Below are positions 1-14,487 of a DNA stretch of 64,000 bases, in pieces. The translations under genes were made by a program, and so were the position numbers. The notes under the pieces are model-generated. The model ran no database searches. It was not told the DNA's origin and was given only the letters and a program-made list of their open reading frames with translations. Location: the NCBI GenBank assembly GCA_903855985.1, contig CAIOAO010000043.1, forward strand, positions 8,603-72,602, read 5' to 3'. How positions within the stretch are numbered: position 1 is the first letter of the stretch; every line of letters starts with the position of its first letter. This stretch comes from an uncultured Opitutia bacterium. Its GTDB lineage: Bacteria; Verrucomicrobiota; Verrucomicrobiia; Opitutales; Opitutaceae.

Positions 1-234
1 GAGCTGCGACTTGGCCAGTACGGCCTTGCCGGCGGCGGCGCTGGCGTCGGACGGCCGCGTCCCGGCCGGCCACATCCGGCGCTCGCGGATGCCGGTCATC
101 AGCTCGAGCCGGCCCGCGGGCAGCTTGAGCCGCTCGTACAGCGGGCGCAGGCGTTCCTCGATCTGGGCGGAGGTCCAGATTTCGCCGGGGAGCGCGCTCG
201 CGAGGGATTCGATGCAGACGTGGGCGAACCTCAT
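1..234 (-). CDS. 3-oxoacyl-ACP synthase III (FabH-like), 5' part only; gene runs off the left window edge
   Basis: My translation of the reverse strand from ATG at 234..232 gives MRFAHVCIESLASALPGEIWTSAQIEERLRPLYERLKLPAGRLELMTGIRERRMWPAG..., a typical KAS III N-terminus. It is missing from the ORF track because it is truncated by the edge. Confidence 0.6.
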   Translation of the reverse strand, partial: MRFAHVCIESLASALPGEIWTSAQIEERLRPLYERLKLPAGRLELMTGIRERRMWPAGTRPSDASAAAGKAVLAKSQL

Positions 235-241
235 GCGCGCC

Positions 242-1054
242 TTACTTCTCCGGCCGCATGGCGAGCCGGATGATTTCCTGGTCGAAGTAATTCGAGCCGA
301 GCCCCGCGTCCACGACCAGCGTCGTGCCGTTCACCCCGCTGCTGCGCTCGCTGAGGAGAAACAGCACGGTGTTGGCGACTTCCTGCGTCTCGAGGTTGCG
401 TTTGCGGAACGTGAGCTTGGCGGCGTAAAGGTAGCTTTCGACATAGCCCGGGATGCCGGCCGACGCGCTGGTCTTGAGCGGTCCGGCGCCGACGGCGTTG
501 AAGCGCACGGCGGTGTCGGCGCTGAAGGACTTGGCGAGGAAGCGCACGCCGGACTCGAGGGCGGCCTTGATCGGGCCCATGTAGCCGTAGTTGTCGGGTG
601 TCACGAGCAGCGAGGAGATGCCGATGGTCACGACGGAGGCGTTCTTGGCCAGCAGCGGCTTGAGGGCGCGGGCGACCTCCACGAGGGAAAACGCGGACAC
701 GGCCATGGCCTGCAGGAAATCCGCGCGCTTCGTCTCATGGAACGGCTTGAAGCCCTCGCTGTAGTTGGCGAACGCGATGGAATGGACCACGCCGTGCAGC
801 ACCGGGTGGCCGGCGGCGGCGATCTCGGTGGCGAGCCGGGCGGGCGCGCCCTCCTGTTCGACGTCGCAGATAAAGACCGGTTTACCGGCGAGCTGGGTCT
901 CGAGGGACTTTTTGCGGGCCTCCGAGCGCACGCTGTAAAGCACCTTCGCGCCGGCTTCCTCGAGCGACTGGGCCGTGAACCAGGCCACGCTCTTGCGGTT
1001 GGCCACGCCGAAGACGAGGACGGTCTTGCCGGAAAGCTGGAGGAAATCGGTCAT
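242..1054 (-). CDS. fabI: enoyl-ACP reductase, FabI type (SDR)
   Basis: ORF 242..1084. Rossmann N-terminus [19 protein letters not shown] and FabI-like Y-x6-K ([12 protein letters not shown]). The ATG at 1054 overlaps the upstream stop as ATGA. Confidence 0.85.
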
Positions 1055-1506
1055 GGCGCGGGCGTGGCGGCGGGCACCTTCCACGCCACGGAAAAATCCA
1101 CGGAGAGCACGCGCTTGTCACCGCTTTTGATGCTGCCGCTCATCATGGTGAAACCGCCGAGGGTCTCCTTTTTCTTCACTTCGATCACGATGGTCTCGCC
1201 GGGATAGACCGGGCTGCGGAAACGCACGTCGTTGATCTTCGCCAGCAGCGGCACACCGCCGGCCGGTCCACCCTGCCCCGCCATGCTGCGTGCCATGTAG
1301 AGCGCCCCGGTCTGGAACACCGCCTCGCACAGCAGTACCCCCGGGGTGATTGGCGCGCCGGGATAGTGTCCCTGGTAAAAATCCTCGTCGGCGCGCAGGG
1401 TCCGCTTGGCCACCAAGCCGTCCGCGCTCTCGGAGACGATCTCGTCCACGAACAGGAACGGCGGCCGGTGCGGGATCAGGGCGAGGACGTCGGGGCTGGC
1501 GCTCAT
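1051..1506 (-). CDS. 3-hydroxyacyl-ACP dehydratase, FabZ/FabA-like hotdog fold
   Basis: [15 protein letters not shown] ... [26 protein letters not shown] matches the FabZ signature. ATGA overlaps occur at both ends (1503-1506 and 1051-1054). Confidence 0.85.
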
Positions 1507-2960
1507 GGGGTGGCGTTGGTGGAAGCGGGCTGGCGCTGGCGGAAGAGTGCCTGGTCGATCTTGTTCGCGACGATCACACCATAATTGATGGTCCCGAGCC
1601 AGCCCGACATGATGATGCCCACCGAGCCGGCGTGGTACAAGCCGGGGAGTTTTTCGGGCAGGTCCATCGAGACCTTCAGGCCCTCAAACTTGGTGCCAAA
1701 GGCCGTGCCGCCCACGTGCGTGGTGTAGCGCTCGATGGTCCGGGGCGTGGCGGCCTCCTTCCAGTCGATCTTTCCCCGCACGCCGGGAATGAACTTCTCC
1801 AGGGTGACGATCGCCTCCTCGATGAGCCGGTTTTTCTCCCGCTCGTACTCCTCGTCGCCCAGTTTTTGCCAGTCGCCGTAGCGGCCGTTGAGCGAGACCA
1901 CCACGGTGTAGCGGTCAGAGCCGGGCCGCGTGTCGGGGTAATACATCGAGAACGTCCGGCTCGTGGTGTGGAAATCGGTCAGTTCCTCGCTGCTGAACTT
2001 GGGGTTGCCCGACGTGAAGACGAGATCACCGATGTGCGGGAGCGTCTCGCCCTTGCGGATGCCGAGGTAAACCTGGCAGGAGCTCGAGTTGATGCGCACG
2101 GCCTGGGCGTTGGCGACGTACTCCGCCGGGAAACTTGCCTCGCCCGCGAGGCGGAAGATGGTGTTCTTGATGCTCGCGTTGGAGAGGACGGCCTTGGCGC
2201 GGATGACGCGGCCGCTGCTGGCGACGATGCCGCAGGCGACCTTCCGGCCGGCGCGCTCCTCGACCAGAATCTTGTCCACGAGCACTTTTTTCCGCACCTC
2301 GACACCGTTGTGCTTCAGCTCGGCGATCATCTTCTCGATCAGCACGTCCGAGCCGCCGCGGAAGGTGTAGACGCCCGAGCCCATGAAATTGGAAAACACG
2401 ATGCCGTAGGTGATGGCGGGATCGTTGAGCGTGGAGCCGTTGGCGTAGGCGATCGGCTCCATCAGCAGGCGCTTCACGTCATCGCGGCCCGGGAAGAAGC
2501 GCTCGAGCATCTCGCCCGTCGTCTCGGGGTTGTTGTCGTAGTAGTTCATCCCCCGCAGGTAGTCGTAGAACTTCTCGACGTGGTCGGGATCGAGTTTGAA
2601 CTGCTCGACGAGGACGCGGGTGTAGTCCTCGCGGGTGAAGGTCGTCCAGACGTCCATCTGCGGGTTGACGAAGCGGATGTCCTTCAGCTGCACGATCGCG
2701 TCGGCGATCTCCTTGGTCCAGTACTTGCGGCACGACTTGATCATGCCGACGGGGAAGCCGTGCAAGGAAATGTCGAAGATGTGGCCGCCCTTGCGGGTGA
2801 ACCAGGTGGCGAGGCCGCCGAACTGGTAGTGGTGCTCAAGGAGCAGCACCTTGTGCCCGGCTTTCGCCAGCACGTTTGCGCCGGTCAAGCCGCCCAGACC
2901 GCTGCCGATGACGATCACGTCATACTCGTCGGCCACCCCTTTGAGCCAGTCATAAGCCAT
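1503..2960 (-). CDS. NAD(P)/FAD-dependent oxidoreductase, phytoene desaturase (CrtI) family
   Basis: 485 aa. N-terminal dinucleotide fold [37 protein letters not shown], with CrtI/RetSat-like length and C-terminus. Confidence 0.85.
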
Positions 2961-3051
2961 GGAAGCCGATCAGTGAACGCGCTGCCGGAGCGAGGGCAAG
3001 GGGTTTGTTCCCCGCCCTCGGATTCACCCTGAAACCCGGCCTGGCCGCCGC

Positions 3052-4377
3052 CTAGCGCTGAGGCTCCGGCTGCTGGTCGCGGGGATTGTCCTTCGGCGGG
3101 GGCGGTGCCGGACGCGGCGGCGGTAGATTGACCGGACGGGCCTCGGGCGGCCGGGCGGCCGGCTGATGGTTCGGCGTGGGCGGCGGCTGATGGGTCAACT
3201 GGCCGGTCGGGCGCGGGGAGTTGTTCTCCGGCCGGGGTGCCGGTGGCGGCGTGGTGGGCGCACGGTCGCGGTTGTTCTGATTCCAGTTGGGATTGTTGGC
3301 GGGCCGGGACGCCGGCTGGCTGGGCGGATTGGCCGGCCGGGGATTGTTGGCCGGCGCATTAGTTTCCGGCCGGGGCGCGGGTGTCGCGGGGGTCACGGGC
3401 GGGCGGTGGTCGCGATTGTCGTGGTTCCAGTTGGGGTTGTTCGCCGGGACCGGCTGGCGGTTGTGATCGTTGTCCCGCGAATTATTGTCCGGCCGCGGGC
3501 GTTCCGGGTGCGCGTCACGGGGCGGATACGACGGATACGACGGTGAGCTGGGGAATGGCCGGGGGCGGATAATATCCGGATTGGAGCGGTGGTTGTCGGG
3601 ACGCGTGAAAGGCGGACGCGTTGCCGGTGGAGTCCACGGGCGCCAGTTGTTGCCATAATTCGGCTTTCCGCCGGGGCCCGGGCGGCGGTTCCAATCCCGG
3701 TGCTCGGACCAGTTGTGATGGCGGTCACCGACGATGATGACGCGGGTGCGCCAGTTGAAATCGTAGCTTAGCCAGAAGCCGACCGGCAGACCCAGGCCAA
3801 ACGTCACATAGGGCGGACCACCGTAATAGCTGGTCTGACCGTAGACCAGATTCGGGTCGTAATACGGCACGTAGATGACGTCCGGCTGGGCCGGCACGAT
3901 CTGGATGTCGTCACCATCCAGCAGCAGTTTCTGCTGGGGCGTGCTCGTGAGGGTGCCGTTGGCCTTCGCGCGAACGCGCAAGCGCTGCACGGAGTTCATC
4001 ACCTCGTCGGGTTGGAAGAGGAACGTGGCGCCGAGCTGTTGCGTCCAGGTCAGGTTTTCATCCATCCACTTGATCAGCATCGGATACCGTGCGAGGGCGC
4101 GGACGCTTTCGCTCCACGGCTGGTCGTCGATCTTGTCCGGGTCGCCGCCGGTGCTGAGGTAGCGCTGGGCCAGCACGATGTCGGCGGGGCTGGCCGCGGC
4201 CGGCAGAATGATGGCGACCAGGGCGTCGGGATAGAGGGCGATGGGCCCCAGCAGCTGGTCGACCTGCTGCGGGTTCAGCGGCGCGTTGACGTCAATTTCC
4301 TCGGCGCGCCCCGGGCTGGCGGCAAGCAGCGCGAGGCCAAGGAGGAAGCTCAGGACGGGGACAGTGGAGAGTTTCAT
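3052..4377 (-). CDS. secreted DUF3300-family protein with long Pro/Asn/Arg-rich low-complexity tail
   Basis: ORF 3052..4536. The internal ATG at 4377 gives signal peptide MKLSTVPVLSFLLGLALLAASPGRA. LLGPIALYPDALVAIILPAAASPADIVLAQRYL is the DUF3300 core. The C-terminal ~170 aa is P/N/R-rich. Confidence 0.8.
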   Translation of the reverse strand: MKLSTVPVLSFLLGLALLAASPGRAEEIDVNAPLNPQQVDQLLGPIALYPDALVAIILPAAASPADIVLAQRYLSTGGDPDKIDDQPWSESVRALARYPMLIKWMDENLTWTQQLGATFLFQPDEVMNSVQRLRVRAKANGTLTSTPQQKLLLDGDDIQIVPAQPDVIYVPYYDPNLVYGQTSYYGGPPYVTFGLGLPVGFWLSYDFNWRTRVIIVGDRHHNWSEHRDWNRRPGPGGKPNYGNNWRPWTPPATRPPFTRPDNHRSNPDIIRPRPFPSSPSYPSYPPRDAHPERPRPDNNSRDNDHNRQPVPANNPNWNHDNRDHRPPVTPATPAPRPETNAPANNPRPANPPSQPASRPANNPNWNQNNRDRAPTTPPPAPRPENNSPRPTGQLTHQPPPTPNHQPAARPPEARPVNLPPPRPAPPPPKDNPRDQQPEPQR

Positions 4378-4445
4378 GGGGGTAGGAAGTGCTCCTGCAC
4401 TGAGTGAACTGAGACAAAAGGGGTAAATCTTTGTGCCGGAAAAAG

Positions 4446-5879
4446 CTAAGCTTTCGCGAGGATGTGGTAATTGGCCATGGAGATGCCGCTGAGCATGGCG
4501 CCGACGATGCCGAGAAAACCCTGGTCCGTGCCGCACAGGTAGAGATTGGCGAGATCGGTGCGGCCCTGCCGGTTCTTTTCTGCCGCGCCGTAAATGGCGC
4601 CGCCGAGGTGGCCGGTAAACTTGGTGATGGTGCGGGGGGTGAACATGTCAGTGCTCACGGTGGCACGGGTGAGCAGGTCGGGCGCGGCCAGCTTCGGGAG
4701 GAAACGCTGGGCGCTTTTCTGCAGCGCGGCGTACCAGCGCAGCTTGTCGGCGCGGTAGGTTTCCTCCGGCAGGTGGGCCCAGCGTTCGAAGTTGGCGAGG
4801 CAGGTGCAGCGGAAGATGCCCTCGGCGAGCTGCTGGTCGGGACCGTAGTCGAAATTATTGGGGATGCAGATCACGCCGCTGCGCGGATCCACCTGCGCCT
4901 CCGGGCAGGCGTAGTCGAATTTGGCCGAGTCGTTGAAAAACACGATGGTGTCACTCCCCCACCCGAGGTCCGCCGGCTGCCGGTCCAGGATCGTGATTGT
5001 TTCCACAAAGGACAGACGCCCGGGCGCCGGGGCGGGTTGCAGGCGGTGACCCGATTGCACGAGGCGCGCGGTTTCGGGCGCTCCGATGGACGAGATGACA
5101 TGGTCGGCGGTGATCTCGTCACCGTTGTCGAGGAGGAGCGAGGCGGCGCGGCCGTCGCGGGCGACGATGTGCTTCACACCGCACTTCATGCGGCGTTCGC
5201 CGCCGGCGGCGCGGTACTTTTCGAGCAGGACCCGGAGAATGACCCGCACGCCATCGAAGGGCCGCGCGAAGCCCTCGAGGAAGAGCGCCTTGAACATGAT
5301 CACGAACTGGCCGAACTCCATGTCGTGCTCGGACGAGCTGCCGTAATACATCACGGGGCAGAACAGCATGTGCTCCAGCAGCGGGTCGGTGATGTACTGG
5401 CGGACGAGGGTCCGCGCCGACACGGGCTGGGCGTCGAGCGAGACATCATCGTAGGCCCGCACCGCGCTGGTCAGCCGGCGGAAGCCGTCGATCTGGGCGG
5501 GAAATTTTTCCGCGACCTCGCCCTCGAGCACGGCAAAGTCGTTGGTGAACCGCAGCGAGGTCTCACCGTGCGGGCCGAAGGCGATGCGCGTCTGCTTCTG
5601 CTCGCAGAGGGCGAACTCCTCGCGGCTGATGCGCAACTGCCGGAGGAGCTTGGTCAGGGGCGTCCCCTTGACCCCGGGTTGCACGAAATTGGTCATCGCA
5701 TGCAGGCCGACGTCGAATTTGCGTCCGCCGATGCTGTAGAAGCTGTTCAGTCCGCCGACGGTGTTGTGCCGCTCGAAGATGCAGACCTTCTTGCCGAAGT
5801 GCGCCAGCCGGATGCCGGCGGCGAGCCCGGACATGCCGGCGCCGATGATGGCGACATCGTAGTGGGAGCGGGAATTCAC
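4446..5879 (-). CDS. NAD(P)/FAD-dependent oxidoreductase, phytoene desaturase (CrtI) family (second copy)
   Basis: ORF 4446..5921 begins with TTG inside a 23-bp-arm hairpin. The GTG at 5879 (VNSRSHYDVAIIGAGMSGLAAGIRLAHFGKKVCIFERHNTVGG) is the more likely start. Confidence 0.8.
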   Translation of the reverse strand: MNSRSHYDVAIIGAGMSGLAAGIRLAHFGKKVCIFERHNTVGGLNSFYSIGGRKFDVGLHAMTNFVQPGVKGTPLTKLLRQLRISREEFALCEQKQTRIAFGPHGETSLRFTNDFAVLEGEVAEKFPAQIDGFRRLTSAVRAYDDVSLDAQPVSARTLVRQYITDPLLEHMLFCPVMYYGSSSEHDMEFGQFVIMFKALFLEGFARPFDGVRVILRVLLEKYRAAGGERRMKCGVKHIVARDGRAASLLLDNGDEITADHVISSIGAPETARLVQSGHRLQPAPAPGRLSFVETITILDRQPADLGWGSDTIVFFNDSAKFDYACPEAQVDPRSGVICIPNNFDYGPDQQLAEGIFRCTCLANFERWAHLPEETYRADKLRWYAALQKSAQRFLPKLAAPDLLTRATVSTDMFTPRTITKFTGHLGGAIYGAAEKNRQGRTDLANLYLCGTDQGFLGIVGAMLSGISMANYHILAKA

Positions 5880-5891
5880 CGGAGAGATGAA

Positions 5892-5954
5892 GGGGGAAGC
5901 CAGGAAACCAGGAAAGACCAAAACCTTCCGGTTCCTGGTTTCATGGCTTCCCCC
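5892..5954. repeat. inverted repeat with 23-bp arms (1 mismatch) and 17-nt spacer; each arm is built from GGAA/TTCC units with 8-bp period
   Basis: GGGGGAAGCCAGGAAACCAGGAA (5892-5914) versus TTCCTGGTTTCATGGCTTCCCCC (5932-5954). The reverse complement differs at one base. Confidence 0.9.
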
Positions 5955-5987
5955 TTAAAATAAAACAGGCCGGGAATACTCCCGGCC
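5955..5987 (-). terminator. rho-independent terminator after the ACP gene
   Basis: Reverse strand reads GGCCGGGA-gtat-TCCCGGCC followed by TGTTTTATTTTAA, about 30 nt past the ACP stop at 6017. Confidence 0.65.
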
Positions 5988-6016
5988 CGTGGTCGTCCTT
6001 GGCGCGGTGCGCGCGG

Positions 6017-6280
6017 TCAGCTCTTGGCACTCAGCGCGTTGAACTTCGGCGTGAGGTACTCCGCGCAGCTGTCGAGCGAAGCGAGCTGGATGTAGTCCGC
6101 CTCCGGGACCTCGATGCTGTGGCGTTTGCGCAGTTCCATCACGATATCGAGGAAATCCATCGAATCGAGCTGGAGCTGGTCGCGCAGGCGCACGTCGGAC
6201 TTGACGTTGGTCAGGTCCTCGTCGGGCGCGATGTCGGCAATGATGTCGAGCACCACCTTCTTGCATTCGTCTTTGGTCAT
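6017..6280 (-). CDS. acyl carrier protein (cluster-specific)
   Basis: 87 aa. The phosphopantetheine attachment motif is LQLDSMDFLDIVMEL. Confidence 0.9.
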   Translation of the reverse strand: MTKDECKKVVLDIIADIAPDEDLTNVKSDVRLRDQLQLDSMDFLDIVMELRKRHSIEVPEADYIQLASLDSCAEYLTPKFNALSAKS

Positions 6281-6301
6281 ATATGGGCGGAAGCGTGGGA
6301 C

Positions 6302-7540
6302 TTAGGGGGCAAAGCGTTTAACAATCAACGTGGAATTTATCCCCAGCATCCCGAAGGAGTTATTGAGGATGGTGTCCACTTTCGCAACCTTCCGTGGCTG
6401 ATTTAAAACCAGCCCGGGCAGCGCGCACGCCGGGTCGAGGTCATCCACGTTGATCGTCGGGTGCACGATCAGGTCGTCGAAGGACGGCAGGTTGCCGGCC
6501 AGCTCCAGCGCCCCCGCCGCACCCATGCAGTGGCCGATGTAGCTCTTGGTGTTGTTGATGTGGGTTTCGGGGCAACCTTCGCCGAACACCGCACGGATGG
6601 CCTCGCACTCCTGGATATCGCCGAGGGGCGTGGCAGTGGCGTGGGTGTTGACGATGTGAATATCGGCCGGAGTGAGTCCGGCGCGGCGGATGGACGCGCG
6701 CACGCACTCGGCCTGCCGGACGGGATTGGGCAGCACGTAGTCGCTGGCGTCGGAGTTGACGTGATAGCCCGCGATCTCGGCGTAGATCTTGGCTCCGCGC
6801 GCCTGGGCATCCTCGAGCCGCTCGAGCGTGTACAAACAGCCACCCTCCGAGACGACGATGCCATTGCGGGCCTTGTCGAAGGGGCGGCTGGCCTTGGCCG
6901 GGTCGGCGTGGGTGGCGAGGGCGTTCTGGCTCTTAAAACCGGCGAAGATGCCGAAGGTGTGGATGCTCTCGCTGATGCCGCCGCAGATGGCCAGGTCCAC
7001 CTCGCCGAGGCGCAGCATCTGCGCGGCGTGGATCAGGCCCAGGTTGCCGGCGGCGCAGGCGGCGCCGATGGTGTACGCGGGCCCGGTGACACCGAGATTG
7101 AGCGAGGCCTCGCCCGCCGGGTTGTTCGCGACGGTGCGGGGGTTGTGGTAATGCGACCAGAACTTCGTGTCGTAGTTAAACTTCGAGATGTTGTAGATTT
7201 CGTTCTCCGTCTCGACGTTGCCGTGCTCGGTGCAGCCGATGTAGATGCCCACGCGGTCCTTGGCCTGGGCCGACCAGTCGATCTTGCTGTCGGCCAGGGC
7301 TTCGCGGGCGCAATAGACGCTGATGCTGCCGGCGCGGGTGCCGACGCGAACCTCCTTCTTGGTCTGGTGGCGGAGGGCGTCGTAGTGGCAGACACCGGCG
7401 AGCTGCGAGCCCATGTAGCGGATTTCCATGCGCTCGATGCCTGCCACGCCATTGAGCAGGTTCTGGCGGAACTCCGCCAGGGAATTGCCGTTGGGGGCAG
7501 TCAAACCGACTCCGGTGATGACGATGCGGGAAGGCTTCAT
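6302..7540 (-). CDS. beta-ketoacyl-ACP synthase I/II (FabF/FabB-like)
   Basis: ORF 6302..7567 has a TTG start; the ATG at 7540 gives MKPSRIVITGVGLTAPNG. Cys-His-His triad context: IGAACAAG, NTHATATPLGD, IGHCMGAAG. Confidence 0.9.
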   Translation of the reverse strand: MKPSRIVITGVGLTAPNGNSLAEFRQNLLNGVAGIERMEIRYMGSQLAGVCHYDALRHQTKKEVRVGTRAGSISVYCAREALADSKIDWSAQAKDRVGIYIGCTEHGNVETENEIYNISKFNYDTKFWSHYHNPRTVANNPAGEASLNLGVTGPAYTIGAACAAGNLGLIHAAQMLRLGEVDLAICGGISESIHTFGIFAGFKSQNALATHADPAKASRPFDKARNGIVVSEGGCLYTLERLEDAQARGAKIYAEIAGYHVNSDASDYVLPNPVRQAECVRASIRRAGLTPADIHIVNTHATATPLGDIQECEAIRAVFGEGCPETHINNTKSYIGHCMGAAGALELAGNLPSFDDLIVHPTINVDDLDPACALPGLVLNQPRKVAKVDTILNNSFGMLGINSTLIVKRFAP

Positions 7541-7599
7541 TCGTTGGGAAAGGAAATCGCTAGCCAACCCCGGGCCGAAAGCAATACAAGCCTCACTGC

Positions 7600-8589
7600 A
7601 TGAACGTGCTTGTCGTCGGGGGCGCCGGTTACATCGGCAGCCATTGTGTCCGCCAGCTCATTGCCGCCGGGCATCGTCCGGTGGTGCTGGACAACCTTGT
7701 GTACGGCCACCGGGCCGCGGTGGCGCCCGGCGTGGCCCTGCACCAGGTCAATCTCGCGGACGAACCGGCGGTCGGAAAGCTGCTCCGCGACGAGGCGATC
7801 GAGCTGGTGATGCATTTCGCCGCCTACTGCTACGTGGGCGAGTCGGTGACGGATCCGCTCAAATATTACTTCAACAATGAGGTCGGCACGCTGCAGCTGT
7901 TGCGCGCGATGCTGGCGGCCGGCGTGAAAAAGTTCGTGTTCTCCTCGACCTGTGCGACCTACGGCACGCCGGCGACGCTGCCCATCGTCGAGACGATGCC
8001 CCAGGCGCCGATCAATCCCTACGGCCAGACGAAACTCGACGTCGAAAACGCCCTCAAGGCCCTCGCGGTGGCCCACGGCCTGAGCTTCGCGGCGTTCCGC
8101 TATTTCAATGCCGCCGGGGCCGCCGAGGATGGGAGCATCGGGGAGGATCACACGCCCGAGACGCACCTGATCCCGCTCGCCTTCGACGCCGCCACGGGCC
8201 GCCGGGCGCAACTCGAGATTTTCGGCACGGATTACCCCACCCCCGACGGCACCTGCCAGCGCGATTACGTGCATGTGGACGACCTCAGCCGCGCGCATAT
8301 CGCCGTGTTCGGGCAACTGGCCAAGCCGGGGGCCGCGTTGTTCTACAATCTCGGCACCGGCCGCCCGACCTCGAATCGCGAGGTCATCCGCGCCGTGGAA
8401 AAAGCCACCGGCCGCAAAATCAAGATCGTCGAGGCGCCGCGCCGCCCGGGTGACCCGGCCGCGCTTTACGCCGATTCATCCAAGGCACAGCGCGAGCTCG
8501 GCTGGAAACCCAAGTTCCCCGACATCGATTCCATCGTCGCCACCGCCTGGAAATGGCACGCGGCGCATCCCGGCGGCTACGGGAAGTGA
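7600..8589 (+). CDS. galE: UDP-glucose 4-epimerase
   Basis: MNVLVVGGAGYIGSHCVRQL with full-length GalE-like sequence, including the YGQTK catalytic motif. Confidence 0.9.
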   Translation: MNVLVVGGAGYIGSHCVRQLIAAGHRPVVLDNLVYGHRAAVAPGVALHQVNLADEPAVGKLLRDEAIELVMHFAAYCYVGESVTDPLKYYFNNEVGTLQLLRAMLAAGVKKFVFSSTCATYGTPATLPIVETMPQAPINPYGQTKLDVENALKALAVAHGLSFAAFRYFNAAGAAEDGSIGEDHTPETHLIPLAFDAATGRRAQLEIFGTDYPTPDGTCQRDYVHVDDLSRAHIAVFGQLAKPGAALFYNLGTGRPTSNREVIRAVEKATGRKIKIVEAPRRPGDPAALYADSSKAQRELGWKPKFPDIDSIVATAWKWHAAHPGGYGK

Positions 8590-8594
8590 CGGGT

Positions 8595-8622
8595 GTAGGG
8601 CGGGTCTAAGACCCCGCTCTAC
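8595..8622. repeat. REP-like GC hairpin, GTAGGGCGGGTCT family
   Basis: GTAGGGCGGGTCTAAGACCCCGCTCTAC lies between convergent galE and the sigma54 activator and overlaps the activator stop codon. A second copy is at 38804. Confidence 0.7.
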
Positions 8623-10139
8623 CCTTTGAGCTTCTTCTTCAGCGCCGCCTGGGTCAGCCCGAGCTCGGCGGCGGCGGCCTTGAGGTCGCCGTTGGTCGCG
8701 GCGAGCGTGCGCTGGATCATTTCCGACTCCAATCGCGCGAGCAGCGGCGGCTGGCCGTGACGCAGGTTGGCGTGGAGAAAATCGAGGGCGCGCTCGGGTG
8801 TCAGTGCGGGTTCACCGGCGGCGATGCTCTCCGCGGCGATCTTGGCGCTGGCGAGCGCGACACTCTCCGCGTTGGCCGTCCGGATCGTGTCGAAGGGTGA
8901 GTCGCTGGCATCGGTCGGCGTGACGAACGTCGCCTCGGTGCTCGTGGCGTTGCGGATCTCCACCGGCAGGTCGTGAACGAGGATGGCGTCGCCCTGTGCG
9001 ATGATTGCGCTGCGGTAGACCACGTTCTCCAGCTCGCGCACGTTGCCGGGCCAGGGATAGCGCCCGAGCACGCCGAGCGCTTCGGCGGAGACTTTCGTGA
9101 CGCGCGTTTTGCGCTGCTTGGCGAGATTCTGCAGGAAAAAATCAATGATCGGCGGGATGTCCAGGGCGCGCTCGCGCAGGGCCGGCATCTTGATCCGCAC
9201 GACGTTGAGCCGGTAATAAAGGTCCTCACGGAAGGTCTTCGCCTTCACCATGGCCTCGAGGTCCTTGTTGGTCGCGGCGATGACGCGTACGTCGACCTTG
9301 ATGGTGTCGGTGCCGCCGACGCGCTGGATTTCGCCGGCCTGCAGGACGCGGAGGATTTTCGTCTGCGTCGCCGGCGCCATGTCGCCGATTTCATCGAGAA
9401 AGATCGTCCCGCCGTCGCAGAGCTCGAACTTGCCGAGGCGCTGGCCGGTGGCGCCGGTGAACGAGCCGCGCTCGTGGCCGAAGAGCTCGCTCTCAATCAA
9501 ATTGTCCGGGATCGCCGCGCAATTGACCGCAATGAACAACTTGGCCGCGCGGTGGCTGTGTTTCCAAATGGACCGCGCGACGAGCTCCTTGCCCGTGCCG
9601 CTCTCGCCCGTGATCATGACGGTGACGTCGCTGGCGGTGACCTGCCCGATGATCTTGAACACCTCCTGCATGACCGGGGAGCTGCCAACGATGCCCTCCT
9701 TGTAATCCTCGGTGTTGATGGCGGGCTTGTAGGCCCCCGCCGCCTGCAGGTCGGCGTGGGTCTTCAGCGCGGCTTCCGCCAGCGCGAGCACCTTCGGCGG
9801 GTCGAAGGGCTTCATGACGTAGTCGAAGGCGCCGTATTTCATCGCCTCGATGGCGGTCTGCGCCGTGCCAAATGCGGTCATCAACACCACGAGCTGCCGC
9901 GGGTTGGCGGAACGGATCAGCCGGAGCGCCTCGATGCCGCCCATGCCGCCCATGCGCACGTCGAGAAACACGAGGTCGGGCGTCGGCCCTTTTTTCACCA
10001 AGGCCAGACCTGCCTCGCCGCTGGCCGCCTCGGTCACCTTGTAGCCGCGCGACGAGAACACCCGCGTGAGCGAGTAGCGGATCTCGGTGTCATCATCGAT
10101 GATGAGGATGGACGGGGGCTTGGCGGTGGTTTCGGGCAT
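8619..10139 (-). CDS. sigma54-dependent response regulator (NtrC family)
   Basis: Receiver domain (ILIIDDD...DLVFLDVRM), AAA+ Walker [24 protein letters not shown], and a C-terminal HTH. Confidence 0.9.
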
Positions 10140-13374: not shown

Positions 13375-14487
13375 ATGGACTTCAAAACCCGCACCCTGCA
13401 GGAACTGCGCGACCGCCGCGGCACCCTCGCCTCCAAGCAAACCCTCCTCGGCTTCGACGGCTTCGTCGATACCATCGTGACCCCGGTCGCCCTGCGCGCC
13501 GGCCAGGGCGAGAACTTCACGCCCATCACCACGATCACCGAGTTCGGCCAGCGCATTATCGGGGCCGCCGGCAAGAGTACGAACCTCGAGTTCTACCCGC
13601 GGATGGACAAGCTGGGCGGCAACGGCCCGATCATGGCCAACGCCCTGCTCGCCCACGGCGCCCAGGTGACCTACATCGGCGCGCTCGGGCGGACCACGAT
13701 CCACCCGGCCTTCGCGGATTTTGCCCAGCGGGCCAAGGTGGTGTCCCTGTGCGATCCGGCCGCGACCACCGCGGTCGAGTTCACCGATGGCAAGCTCATG
13801 CTCGGCATGATGCGCAGCCTGGATGAGATCACGCCGGCCAAGATCACGGAAGTCATGGGCGACGACGCCTACCGGGCCGCCCTCGGCGCCGCCGACCTCG
13901 TCGGCCTGGTGAACTGGACGATGATCCCGAACCTGACGTCGGTGTTCACCGATCTCGTCACCCGCGTCCTGCCGCGGGTGCCGGCCAAGCCGGGCCGCAT
14001 CTTCTTCTTCGACCTCGCCGACCCGGAAAAGCGCTCGTCCGCCGACCTCGCGTACGCGCTCGATACGATCGGCCAGTTCGAGCAGTTCGGCCGCGTCACG
14101 CTCGGGCTCAACCTGAAGGAGGCGCAACAGGTGTTCACCGCGCTGGGCTTCGGCTCCGAGACGGAAACCGAGAGCGGCCTGCGCGCCATGGCCCAGAAGA
14201 TTCGCGACCGCCTCGACCTCACCACCGTCGTAGTCCACCCCAAGGAATCCGCCGCCTGCGCCACCCGCGAGGGCACGTCCTGGGTCCCCGGCCCCTACTC
14301 GGCCAAACCGCTCATCACCACTGGCGCGGGCGATCATTTCAACGCCGGCTTCGTTGCCGCCCAGCTCATGGGCCTGACGCCCGAGGCGGCGCTCGGCCTC
14401 GGCGTCTGCACCAGCGGCCATTACGTCCGCACGGCCAAGAGCCCGTCGCTGGCCGATCTCGAAACCTTCCTCGCGAACTGGAAATAA
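13375..14487 (+). CDS. ribokinase-superfamily sugar kinase (PfkB / ADP-dependent kinase-like)
   Basis: KLGGNGPIMANAL and the C-terminal TTGAGDHFNAGF motif. Substrate unknown. Confidence 0.6.
   Translation: MDFKTRTLQELRDRRGTLASKQTLLGFDGFVDTIVTPVALRAGQGENFTPITTITEFGQRIIGAAGKSTNLEFYPRMDKLGGNGPIMANALLAHGAQVTYIGALGRTTIHPAFADFAQRAKVVSLCDPAATTAVEFTDGKLMLGMMRSLDEITPAKITEVMGDDAYRAALGAADLVGLVNWTMIPNLTSVFTDLVTRVLPRVPAKPGRIFFFDLADPEKRSSADLAYALDTIGQFEQFGRVTLGLNLKEAQQVFTALGFGSETETESGLRAMAQKIRDRLDLTTVVVHPKESAACATREGTSWVPGPYSAKPLITTGAGDHFNAGFVAAQLMGLTPEAALGLGVCTSGHYVRTAKSPSLADLETFLANWK

Follow-up and report, generated by a model that had tools for sequence, protein, structure and literature searches.

The first 7,567 nucleotides of a 64,000-nucleotide stretch of DNA from an uncultured Opitutia bacterium (Opitutaceae; contig CAIOAO010000043.1 of assembly GCA_903855985.1), hereafter the window, carry eight consecutive genes on the reverse strand. 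In gene order they encode an elongating beta-ketoacyl-ACP synthase (KAS), a dedicated acyl carrier protein (ACP), a first flavoenzyme (Flv1), a secreted DUF3300 protein, a second flavoenzyme (Flv2), a FabZ-like dehydratase, a FabI-like enoyl-ACP reductase and, cut by the window edge, a thiolase of the OleA type (Table 1). The original prediction, made from the letters of the window alone, had read them as a specialised lipid cluster in which two flavoenzymes of the CrtI family are wired to genes of fatty acid synthesis. All of these open reading frames (ORFs) lie where it had placed them, on the minus strand, and Pfam and NCBIfam profile searches agree with the family of each of the eight genes. 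The ATGA stop/start overlaps that it had described are exact, at 1503-1506 between Flv2 and FabZ and at 1051-1054 between FabZ and FabI; the intergenic gaps measure 21 nt between KAS and ACP, ~137 nt between ACP and Flv1 and, for the remaining junctions in gene order, 68, 91 and 7 nt. No ketoreductase is visible, as had also been noted: E. coli FabG finds no match in the 64 kb at E<1e-5. The genes form two modules, A (KAS-ACP-Flv1) and B (Flv2-(FabG)-FabZ-FabI, with FabG in some lineages), and OleA and OleB come straight after.

Table 1. Features of the cluster at positions 1-7567 of the window.
Feature	Position	Strand	Properties
KAS, elongating beta-ketoacyl-ACP synthase	6302-7540 (ORF to 7567)	-	412 aa, Cys-His-His, ketoacyl-synt N-/C-terminal domains
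Dedicated ACP	6017-6280	-	87 aa, DSMD motif, PP-binding E 1.6e-7
Terminator-like hairpin and T-run	5965-5990	-	directly 3' of the ACP gene
Long hairpin CCAGGAA...TTCCTGG	5889-5957	-	leader just 5' of the probable Flv1 start
Flavoenzyme 1 (Flv1)	4446-5921, likely start GTG 5879	-	Pfam Amino_oxidase residues 30-483, E 4.9e-16
Secreted DUF3300 protein	3052-4377	-	PF11737 E 7e-49
Flavoenzyme 2 (Flv2)	1503-2960	-	485 aa, Pfam Amino_oxidase and NAD_binding_8
FabZ-like 3-hydroxyacyl-ACP dehydratase	1051-1506	-	151 aa, FabA-like domain E 4.6e-22
FabI-like enoyl-ACP reductase	242-1054	-	270 aa, adh_short_C2 E 1e-56
OleA-type thiolase, first 78 codons	1-234	-	truncated at the window edge; full length 344 aa on the source contig

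The gene at the window edge had been taken for a FabH-like KAS III that initiates chain synthesis. The KAS III assignment stands at the level of fold; the family and the initiating role do not. The 78-residue window fragment scores 87.6 bits against NF006720 (PRK09258) over model positions 1-77, and its full-length orthologue in Horticoccus (locus L011) passes that model with 436 bits (cut-off 285) and misses the canonical fabH model TIGR00747, with 94 bits versus 292. The closest PDB entries (3row, 3s21, 4ktm, 4ku3, 5vxd and 6b2r) match over the full length at E ~1e-64 to 1e-66; 4KU3 and 4KU5 are Xanthomonas campestris OleA, whose catalytic residues are C143, H285, N315 and an E117 that stands in an L-E-P motif and is given by the other subunit (PMC8180931). 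Cys143, Glu117, His285 and Asn315 are all identical (NAC*L, LEP(A)TAS, CHQV, LGNTG) in the L002 orthologue (90% identity to the window fragment), on which we made this check, the window copy ending before these residues. Judged by its sequence, the edge gene belongs to the OleA family, the type that catalyses head-to-head Claisen condensation.

On the source contig, OleA is followed by a 269-aa alpha/beta hydrolase of the OleB type (Abhydrolase) and then by a strand switch. An OleB-like gene lies directly after OleA in at least 49 Opitutales loci, and in L011 its start overlaps the OleA stop. The orthologues in L011 and L002 score 131-141 bits against haloalkane dehalogenase models, and their PDB matches are haloalkane dehalogenases, a kinship that we take to be the one described for the beta-lactone decarboxylase OleB. 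The protein is also 43% identical to the OleB of an oleABCD set in locus L082. The hydrolase after OleA is probably of the OleB type, so that the cluster would end in oleA-oleB.

To place the cluster among its relatives, we scanned Opitutales genomes with a six-sequence Flv2 alignment, which gave 80 species loci, and metagenome contigs with an alignment of non-Opitutae homologues, which gave 80 loci with a G+C content of 0.32-0.68. The gene order of the cassette recurs in more than 100 loci of several phyla, which puts the arrangement far beyond chance; the linkage is thus conserved across phyla and not peculiar to this genome. Six genes in identical order are found in Planctomycetota (L084, L085), and Deltaproteobacteria-like contigs insert FabG and add a phosphopantetheinyl transferase (PPTase; L086 and many others). 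No cassette in other Verrucomicrobia classes appeared among the Flv2 search matches. Within Opitutales, 55 of the 80 species loci have Flv2-FabZ-FabI-OleA-OleB, and L078 is the sole locus with FabI and enough downstream sequence that lacks OleA. In more distant Opitutales the locus holds only module B with OleA and OleB.

Of the metagenomic loci, 48 are 8 kb or longer, and in 25 of these Ole homologues also stand beside the cassette; six or more gene orders occur, counting that of Opitutales. Two loci (L108, L149) have KAS-ACP-Flv1-OleA-OleB-OleC-OleD-Flv2-FabG-FabZ-FabI on one strand with overlapping junctions, and in two others (L087, L164) KAS-ACP-Flv1-OleABCD is convergent with Flv2-FabG-FabZ-FabI; these four hold the full oleABCD set with the cassette. 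Nine loci read OleA-KAS-ACP-Flv1-Flv2-FabG-FabZ-FabI-PPTase. A Planctomycete-like order, OleC-OleD-KAS-ACP-Flv1-Flv2-FabZ-FabI with OleA on the other strand, is seen in L105 and L107, and its OleC-OleD part in L155 and L159; L117, L143 and L084 begin OleD-KAS. The Ole identities in L108 hold for each gene: OleA reaches 392 bits against NF006720 (cut-off 285), and OleC and OleD score 490 bits against olefin beta-lactone synthetase and 402 bits against 2-alkyl-3-oxoalkanoate reductase, these being their best named matches, below the strict equivalog cut-offs. The best matches of its OleB are haloalkane dehalogenases, and the closest relatives of its OleC come from Smithella and Syntrophaceae, one of them named 'ligase in alkane synthesis cluster'. 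Because the same partners re-assort independently in several phyla, the linkage is strong evidence that cassette and ole genes would serve a shared pathway.

Some loci depart from these orders. The OleA-KAS pair is duplicated in two delta-like contigs (L110 and L118, 3051-8600), giving OleA-KAS-ACP-OleA-KAS-Flv1..., and in L082 a 313-aa protein with no Pfa​m or NCBIfam match (13432-14373, +) follows Flv-FabG-FabZ-FabI, with oleABCD on the other strand.

The fab-like genes had been proposed to be a specialised set, and comparison with the cassette loci and with curated models agrees: all score under their NCBIfam equivalog cut-offs. The KAS, in whose translation the motifs GAACAAG, NTHATAT and IGHCMGAAG can be read, scores 313 bits against fabF TIGR03150 (cut-off 494) and 77 against omega_3_PfaA (1010). 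The cassette ACP reaches 29-33 bits against ACP models with cut-offs of 66-71, acpP TIGR00517 included, and E. coli AcpP finds neither it nor any orthologue by tblastn (E<1e-5). Best model scores of the FabI-like protein, which has Tyr-x6-Lys, are 175 bits against cut-offs of 299-477, among them 370 for a FabI equivalog. The FabZ-like protein reaches 99.9 bits against NF000582 (113) and 95.9 against TIGR01750 (155); it shares 39% of its residues with E. coli FabZ and has the catalytic His (GHYP) and Glu (CEAV), the canonical tunnel Gly (FQTGAL) and the basic residues (RFRSP, KKKE). We considered a close kinship with amxFabZ of anammox bacteria and rejected it, since the protein scores similarly against E. 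coli FabZ and amxFabZ and keeps the canonical Gly.

Identity to the Planctomycetota and Deltaproteobacteria copies is 67% for KAS, 55-63% for ACP, 42-43% for FabZ, 55-56% for FabI, 49-52% for Flv1 and 57-60% for Flv2. Since the FabI-like protein scores ~300 bits against cassette FabIs of other phyla and ~141 bits against the best solved FabI, these comparisons suggest that KAS and FabI resemble their cassette counterparts in other phyla more closely than they do canonical FabF and FabI. The deltaproteobacterial versions carry a PPTase of their own. Because of the sub-cut-off scores, the divergent ACP and the coherence of the cassette across phyla, it is probably a unit apart from housekeeping fatty acid synthase (FAS). 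Nor is it a multidomain synthase of the Pfa type (KS-MAT-ACPn-KR / KS-CLF-DH / ER): its components are all separate small proteins, and no large Pfa-like ORF adjoins the cassette in any locus examined. Unlike the cassette proteins, a FabD that stands alone ~5 kb away passes its equivalog cut-off (299 versus 261 bits; L011, 19499-20431, -).

Flv1 and Flv2 are distant paralogues (~23% identity), both with a GxGxxG motif. Among named NCBIfam models, carotenoid isomerase, CrtD and CrtI match them best, with scores between a third and a tenth of the cut-offs: Flv2 scores 114 bits against carotenoid isomerase (cut-off 587) and 75 against crtI_fam TIGR02734 (238), and Flv1 scores 62 and 55 bits against the same two models. 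An AlphaFold model of Flv2 made with 73 sequences has a pLDDT of 90, and its best Foldseek matches, at 15-18% identity, are gamma-carotene desaturase 4rep (TM 0.73), plant PDS 5mog (0.71), CrtI 4dgk and two uncharacterised archaeal oxidoreductases. From this model, Flv2 is predicted to have the CrtI/PDS fold and to depend on flavin adenine dinucleotide (FAD); for Flv1, a CrtI-type fold is assigned from its 23% identity to Flv2 and a full-length Pfam Amino_oxidase match. Both flavoenzymes are in the CrtI superfamily, outside every characterised family: they have the fold and the FAD motif, fall below the family score cut-off and stand outside any carotenoid context. The identified neighbours in ~165 loci are fab and ole genes, with no carotenoid gene among them. 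With no crt genes and scores so far under the CrtI-family cut-offs, the original view that this is not carotenoid synthesis holds.

Flv2 is 87-98% identical across Opitutaceae, and its family is narrow, with ~190 clusters at 50% identity reaching E<=1e-30 and few of these full length. FabZ lies downstream of Flv2 in 53 of the 63 loci with enough sequence, and Flv1 always follows an ACP gene in the Opitutales and metagenome loci. One low-G+C contig (L083, 2209-5792, G+C 0.38) encodes a natural Flv2::FabZ fusion of 625 aa (P0122), which, with the synteny across phyla, bears out the claim that the flavoenzymes are wired to the fab-like genes. Because of the fusion, the ATGA coupling and the frequency with which FabZ follows Flv2, the flavoenzymes probably work with the dehydratase. 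The fusion gene is followed by a FabI-like gene and a radical SAM gene, the latter recalling the radical SAM genes of anammox candidate ladderane clusters. Six metagenomic loci (L095-L098, L103 and L120, G+C ~0.57-0.63) hold only Flv2-FabZ, with no FabI, KAS, ACP or ole gene within 10 kb.

The junction between Flv1 and Flv2, where the modules meet, varies among relatives. The DUF3300 protein, which has a signal-peptide-like N-terminus (MKLSTVPVLSFLLGLALLAASPGRA), is found there only in the window and its closest relatives L002 and L015, that is, in 2 of the 40 Opitutales loci that show the junction. L011 holds a xylose-isomerase-like TIM barrel instead, and other loci have 1-2 kb inserts, a second Flv1 copy or nothing; the second copy, in an Opitutaceae metagenome-assembled genome (L013, 6983-9931), makes two tandem Flv1 genes. 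In Smithella-type operons oleABCD fills the same junction. Because of this variation, and because oleABCD can take the place of the insert, the DUF3300 gene is probably an incidental, lineage-specific insertion at the module seam, outside the pathway; that it is embedded as a pathway component, as had been supposed, is rejected by the synteny. The literature that mentions DUF3300 appears, in the excerpts available, to be unrelated to the cluster. The C-terminal half of the protein (3052-3700) is a low-complexity tail of ~200 residues rich in Pro, Asn and Arg, with repeated NNPNWN and RPxxP, and repetitive ORFs lie on the strand opposite it.

A second break lies after the ACP gene. The hairpin there has 11 pairs, eight of them G-C, followed by TTTATTTT, and is the strongest terminator-like site in positions 1-8700. 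A G+C-rich hairpin with a T-run recurs at the same position, with other stem sequences, in L002, L004, L011, L014, L027 and L039; because of this recurrence, it may be an attenuator that parts KAS-ACP from the downstream genes, and KAS-ACP may be expressed at another level than the rest. This hairpin, together with a DUF3300 insertion that most relatives lack, makes it improbable that the eight genes are a single continuous unit. The longer hairpin (GGGGGAAGCC...CCAGGAA / TTCCTGG...GGCTTCCCCC) overlaps TTG 5921, the Flv1 start called by the gene finder; we place the start at GTG 5879, from relatives whose proteins begin MN(T/S)RSHY. Similar hairpins occur in L002, L011 and L021. As a known RNA family the leader hairpins were rejected, Rfam returning only generic hairpin models, all below their gathering scores.

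Upstream of KAS, a divergent gene (7600-8589, +) begins ~60 nt from the KAS start. This 329-aa epimerase-fold protein is GalE (410 bits, cut-off 262) and was rejected as OleD, against which it scores just 59 bits. A divergent epimerase-fold neighbour is kept in many Opitutaceae loci, with weak matches of OleD queries there in 22 loci. Just beyond GalE lies a sigma-54-dependent response regulator (Response_reg, Sigma54_activat, HTH_8; 8619-10139, -). At the other end, beyond the window start on the source contig, a solitary FabD (ACP S-malonyltransferase) lies 4-6 kb downstream of OleB on the opposite strand, placed after GH77, signal peptidase and LepA in a neighbourhood that is kept across Opitutales. 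It is also present in L014, L015, L021, L029, L039-L041, L044, L049, L057 and L068.

We hypothesize, with a probability of roughly 0.6, that modified, probably polyunsaturated, acyl chains are assembled by a private type II synthase with an ACP to itself, and become long-chain olefins once OleA has condensed them. In this scheme, KAS would elongate chains on the dedicated ACP, with malonyl loading and keto-reduction borrowed from housekeeping FabD and FabG, or, in Deltaproteobacteria, with an own FabG and PPTase. The FabZ-like protein would dehydrate the 3-hydroxyacyl-ACP, and Flv1 and Flv2 would act on ACP-bound enoyl or allylic intermediates, whose double bonds they would move or isomerise, or to which they would add new ones. 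There are precedents for such chemistry in CRTISO, CrtI and the fatty-acid isomerase of Propionibacterium, each on its own substrate. The FabI-like protein would reduce the double bond just in those cycles that need saturation. The modified chains would then pass to OleA, which would join two of them head to head, and the remaining Ole enzymes would turn the condensed product into a long-chain olefin. Because OleA is present with an adjoining OleB, an olefin is likelier as the end product than the free unusual fatty acid originally suggested. For the flavoenzymes, we infer that double-bond shifts are favoured over de novo desaturation, because of the Flv2-FabZ fusion and coupling, because known polyunsaturated hydrocarbons (PUHCs) have a methylene-interrupted pattern, and because Pfa synthases require isomerisations of two kinds, a number that the two different flavoenzymes match.

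A more specific form of this model can be proposed tentatively, at odds somewhat short of even. The cassette would be a dissociated type II synthase of polyunsaturated fatty acid (PUFA) chains that needs neither O2 nor Pfa: the flavoenzymes would set methylene-interrupted cis bonds, for instance by flavin-mediated trans-2 to cis-3 and trans-2 to cis-2 shifts during chain growth, and the chains would feed OleA to give C31:9-type hydrocarbons in Opitutae, in Desulfotalea- and Smithella-like Deltaproteobacteria and in Planctomycetes, with a relationship to the anammox ladderane clusters. To our knowledge, the only established routes to polyunsaturated acyl chains are oxygen-dependent desaturases and Pfa polyketide-type synthases; if the model is right, the cassette would be a third biochemical route.

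Several observations weigh against the private synthase feeding OleA, in its general or its polyunsaturated form. The FabZ-like protein looks canonical, in its 39% identity to E. coli FabZ and its tunnel Gly. Flv2 is solitary in ~15 of the 80 Opitutales loci, and many Planctomycete and deltaproteobacterial loci carry the cassette with no ole gene within 10 kb. Two query sets found no OleC or OleD in the window, nor in the 1.33 Mb that the Opitutales loci span (10 kb on each side), and a protein search with a typical OleC returned only relatives of the Smithella, Syntrophaceae and Bacteriovorax type and none from Opitutaceae. As for the product, Opitutaceae bacterium TAV2 is said to contain C31:9, and our literature search found no paper repeating this. 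A complete Ole pathway in this organism would depend on the published report of oleABCD in Opitutae genomes, in which ole genes are an Opitutae trait among freshwater Verrucomicrobia (PMC5673642). Two anammox homologues, kuste3336 and kuste3607, neither replaced CrtI nor gave a new lipid in E. coli (PMC4790861). A survey of pfa-like clusters, whose text leaves Verrucomicrobia unmentioned, reports such genes in Planctomycetes and Geobacter (PMC3098273), so PUFAs may have another source than the cassette in some lineages.

We weighed four other explanations; each of the first three is harder to square with the dedicated ACP, the fusion or the coupling of OleB than is a private synthase feeding OleA. 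The first is tailoring after condensation, in which KAS, ACP, FabZ and FabI give ordinary chains and the flavoenzymes desaturate, saturate or isomerise the Ole ketone, beta-lactone or olefin, as CrtI, RetSat and CRTISO do on C40 chains. This would suit the nearest folds of Flv2, which are enzymes acting on long free polyene hydrocarbons, the position of the ole genes between both flavoenzyme genes in L108 and L149, and the solitary Flv2 of some lineages. We consider it unlikely, however, as Flv2 is fused to FabZ in P0122 and, in the window, shares translational coupling with FabZ and FabI, Flv1 always comes after an ACP gene, and ordinary chains would make a private set of KAS, ACP, dehydratase and enoyl reductase needless.

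Less probable again is O2-independent synthesis of unsaturated fatty acids (UFAs) for the membrane, with a flavoenzyme and FabZ replacing FabA, FabM or FabX (trans-2 to cis-3), KAS in the role of FabB, the FabI-like protein specific to the pathway, and OleA and OleB drawing on the pool. A single isomerisation needs fewer than two different flavoenzymes, and the genes to which the cassette is recurrently linked are ole genes rather than phospholipid genes. The very high conservation of Flv2 in Opitutaceae (87-98%) would befit a membrane function, and there are precedents both for a UFA-specific FabI beside a FabZ-like isomerase and a FabF-like synthase (Enterococcus fabI-fabN-fabO; PMC9671860) and for a flavin-dependent UFA enzyme (FabX; PMC8626469); yet none of the UFA pathways compared has a divergent dedicated ACP, sometimes with a dedicated PPTase, and the cassette was not among the matches in other Verrucomicrobia classes.

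That the Opitutaceae product is a long-chain ketone formed by spontaneous decarboxylation, or another OleA-initiated product such as a beta-lactone lipid, we regard as quite improbable. OleC and OleD are near the cassette in no Opitutales locus, OleA alone yields ketones (PMC6463001), and OleA, OleC and OleD also start beta-lactone pathways, according to the accessible part of PMC7064751. On the other side, oleABCD is reported in Opitutae genomes (PMC5673642) and OleA is in every case accompanied by, and coupled to, a decarboxylase of the OleB type; therefore a beta-lactone intermediate and an olefin product would be the only sensible fit. Plain housekeeping FAS with unrelated neighbours, or a carotenoid pathway, is scarcely credible: the FabZ-like protein does fall just under its equivalog cut-off (99.9 versus 113), but KAS, ACP and FabI are far under theirs, AcpP cannot recognise the ACP, the cassette proteins resemble the cassettes of other phyla more than they do any solved FAS enzyme, their conserved linkage to the flavoenzymes extends to a fusion in one relative, crt genes are absent and the CrtI-family cut-offs are missed at least threefold.

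The original interpretation, a specialised lipid pathway other than carotenoid synthesis, is thus partly supported: it was right in outline, missed the Ole link and over-read DUF3300. It also missed that a related type of cluster had already been discussed, in Kuenenia and Desulfotalea, as a candidate anaerobic PUFA route. The accessible text of that article (Rattray et al. 2009, PMC2649909) describes FASII clusters with phytoene-dehydrogenase-like genes in Kuenenia stuttgartiensis, where kuste3603-3608 and kuste3335-3352 are candidate ladderane clusters, and in Desulfotalea psychrophila (DP2405, DP2406, DP1860). It adds that D. psychrophila has no polyketide PUFA route and yet makes C31:8 and C31:9 hydrocarbons, and proposes a novel anaerobic PUFA pathway. 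Our literature search found no demonstration of this Pfa-independent route proposed in 2009 for Desulfotalea and Kuenenia, and no description of a systematic physical coupling of the flavoenzyme/FAS-II cassette with ole genes. The kind of cluster and the Ole pathway were thus already known, and the systematic coupling of the two is apparently new.

Strict anaerobes like Desulfotalea make C31:8/C31:9 polyenes without Pfa genes, a puzzle that goes back to 2009. Clusters of this type are also the foremost candidates for the opening steps of ladderane synthesis, a pathway still listed as unknown in a 2026 review (PMC13459092). The 11-gene Smithella-type operon and the Flv2::FabZ fusion are the strongest ties between the cassette and Ole, and offer a compact gene set that is directly testable. 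Confirmation of the model would bring a new type of reaction to the CrtI superfamily, account for a lipid trait common to the class Opitutae and provide small, separable enzymes for the engineering of polyunsaturated hydrocarbons.

Among known systems, the Pfa-fed OleABCD pathway of Shewanella and Photobacterium, which gives C31:9 (hentriacontanonaene), shares with the cluster the OleA catalytic residues, followed by an OleB-type hydrolase. In Shewanella, OleA condenses two 16:4n-3 chains of the Pfa synthase, probably directly from its carrier domains (PMC6463001). Just as pfa adjoins ole in Photobacterium and Geobacter (PMC6463001, PMC4882568), a dedicated carrier-protein system lies beside ole here, and the cassette has KS, ACP, DH and ER activities, with KR and PPTase in some lineages. 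It differs in consisting of separate type II proteins instead of a multidomain Pfa polyketide-type synthase, in having two CrtI-fold flavoenzymes in place of FabA-like DH/isomerase domains and a FabK-like PfaD, and in that OleC and OleD are not adjacent in Opitutaceae.

The Kuenenia and Desulfotalea clusters, likened here by their description in the accessible text of PMC2649909, also combine a dedicated ACP, a FabZ variant, FabF paralogues and pfam01593 flavoenzymes. Their host lineages overlap with those of the cassette (Planctomycetes, Deltaproteobacteria), and they too were proposed to give a Pfa-free PUFA/PUHC supply. The window, by contrast, has a cassette FabI and no radical SAM or methyltransferase genes, and is joined directly to oleA and oleB, a link that the same text does not mention. 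The anammox signature, an Ile at the tunnel glycine of amxFabZ (PMC10139942) with loss of the basic ACP-binding residues, is also absent from the window FabZ, which keeps the Gly and the basic residues.

With CrtI, PDS, CrtD, CRTISO and RetSat, enzymes that act on the double bonds of long lipids, the flavoenzymes share the FAD Rossmann motif and an amine-oxidase-type substrate domain. They differ in their 15-18% identity, in scores three- to fivefold below the cut-offs, in the absence of a carotenoid context and in their probable substrate, which from the gene context would be an ACP-bound acyl chain. A further likeness may lie with the polyenoic fatty acid isomerase of Propionibacterium acnes, an FAD-dependent enzyme. 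Finally, the UFA modules of Enterococcus and Helicobacter offer parallels for parts of the cassette. Enterococcus fabI-fabN-fabO groups a FabZ-like protein, a FabF-like protein and a dedicated FabI for double-bond retention (PMC9671860), and Helicobacter FabX is a flavoenzyme able to create cis-3-enoyl-ACP (PMC8626469). The isomerising families differ, however, FabN being a hotdog protein and FabX an enzyme with flavin mononucleotide and [4Fe-4S], and neither module has the dedicated ACP or the ole linkage of the cassette; their product carries a single double bond.

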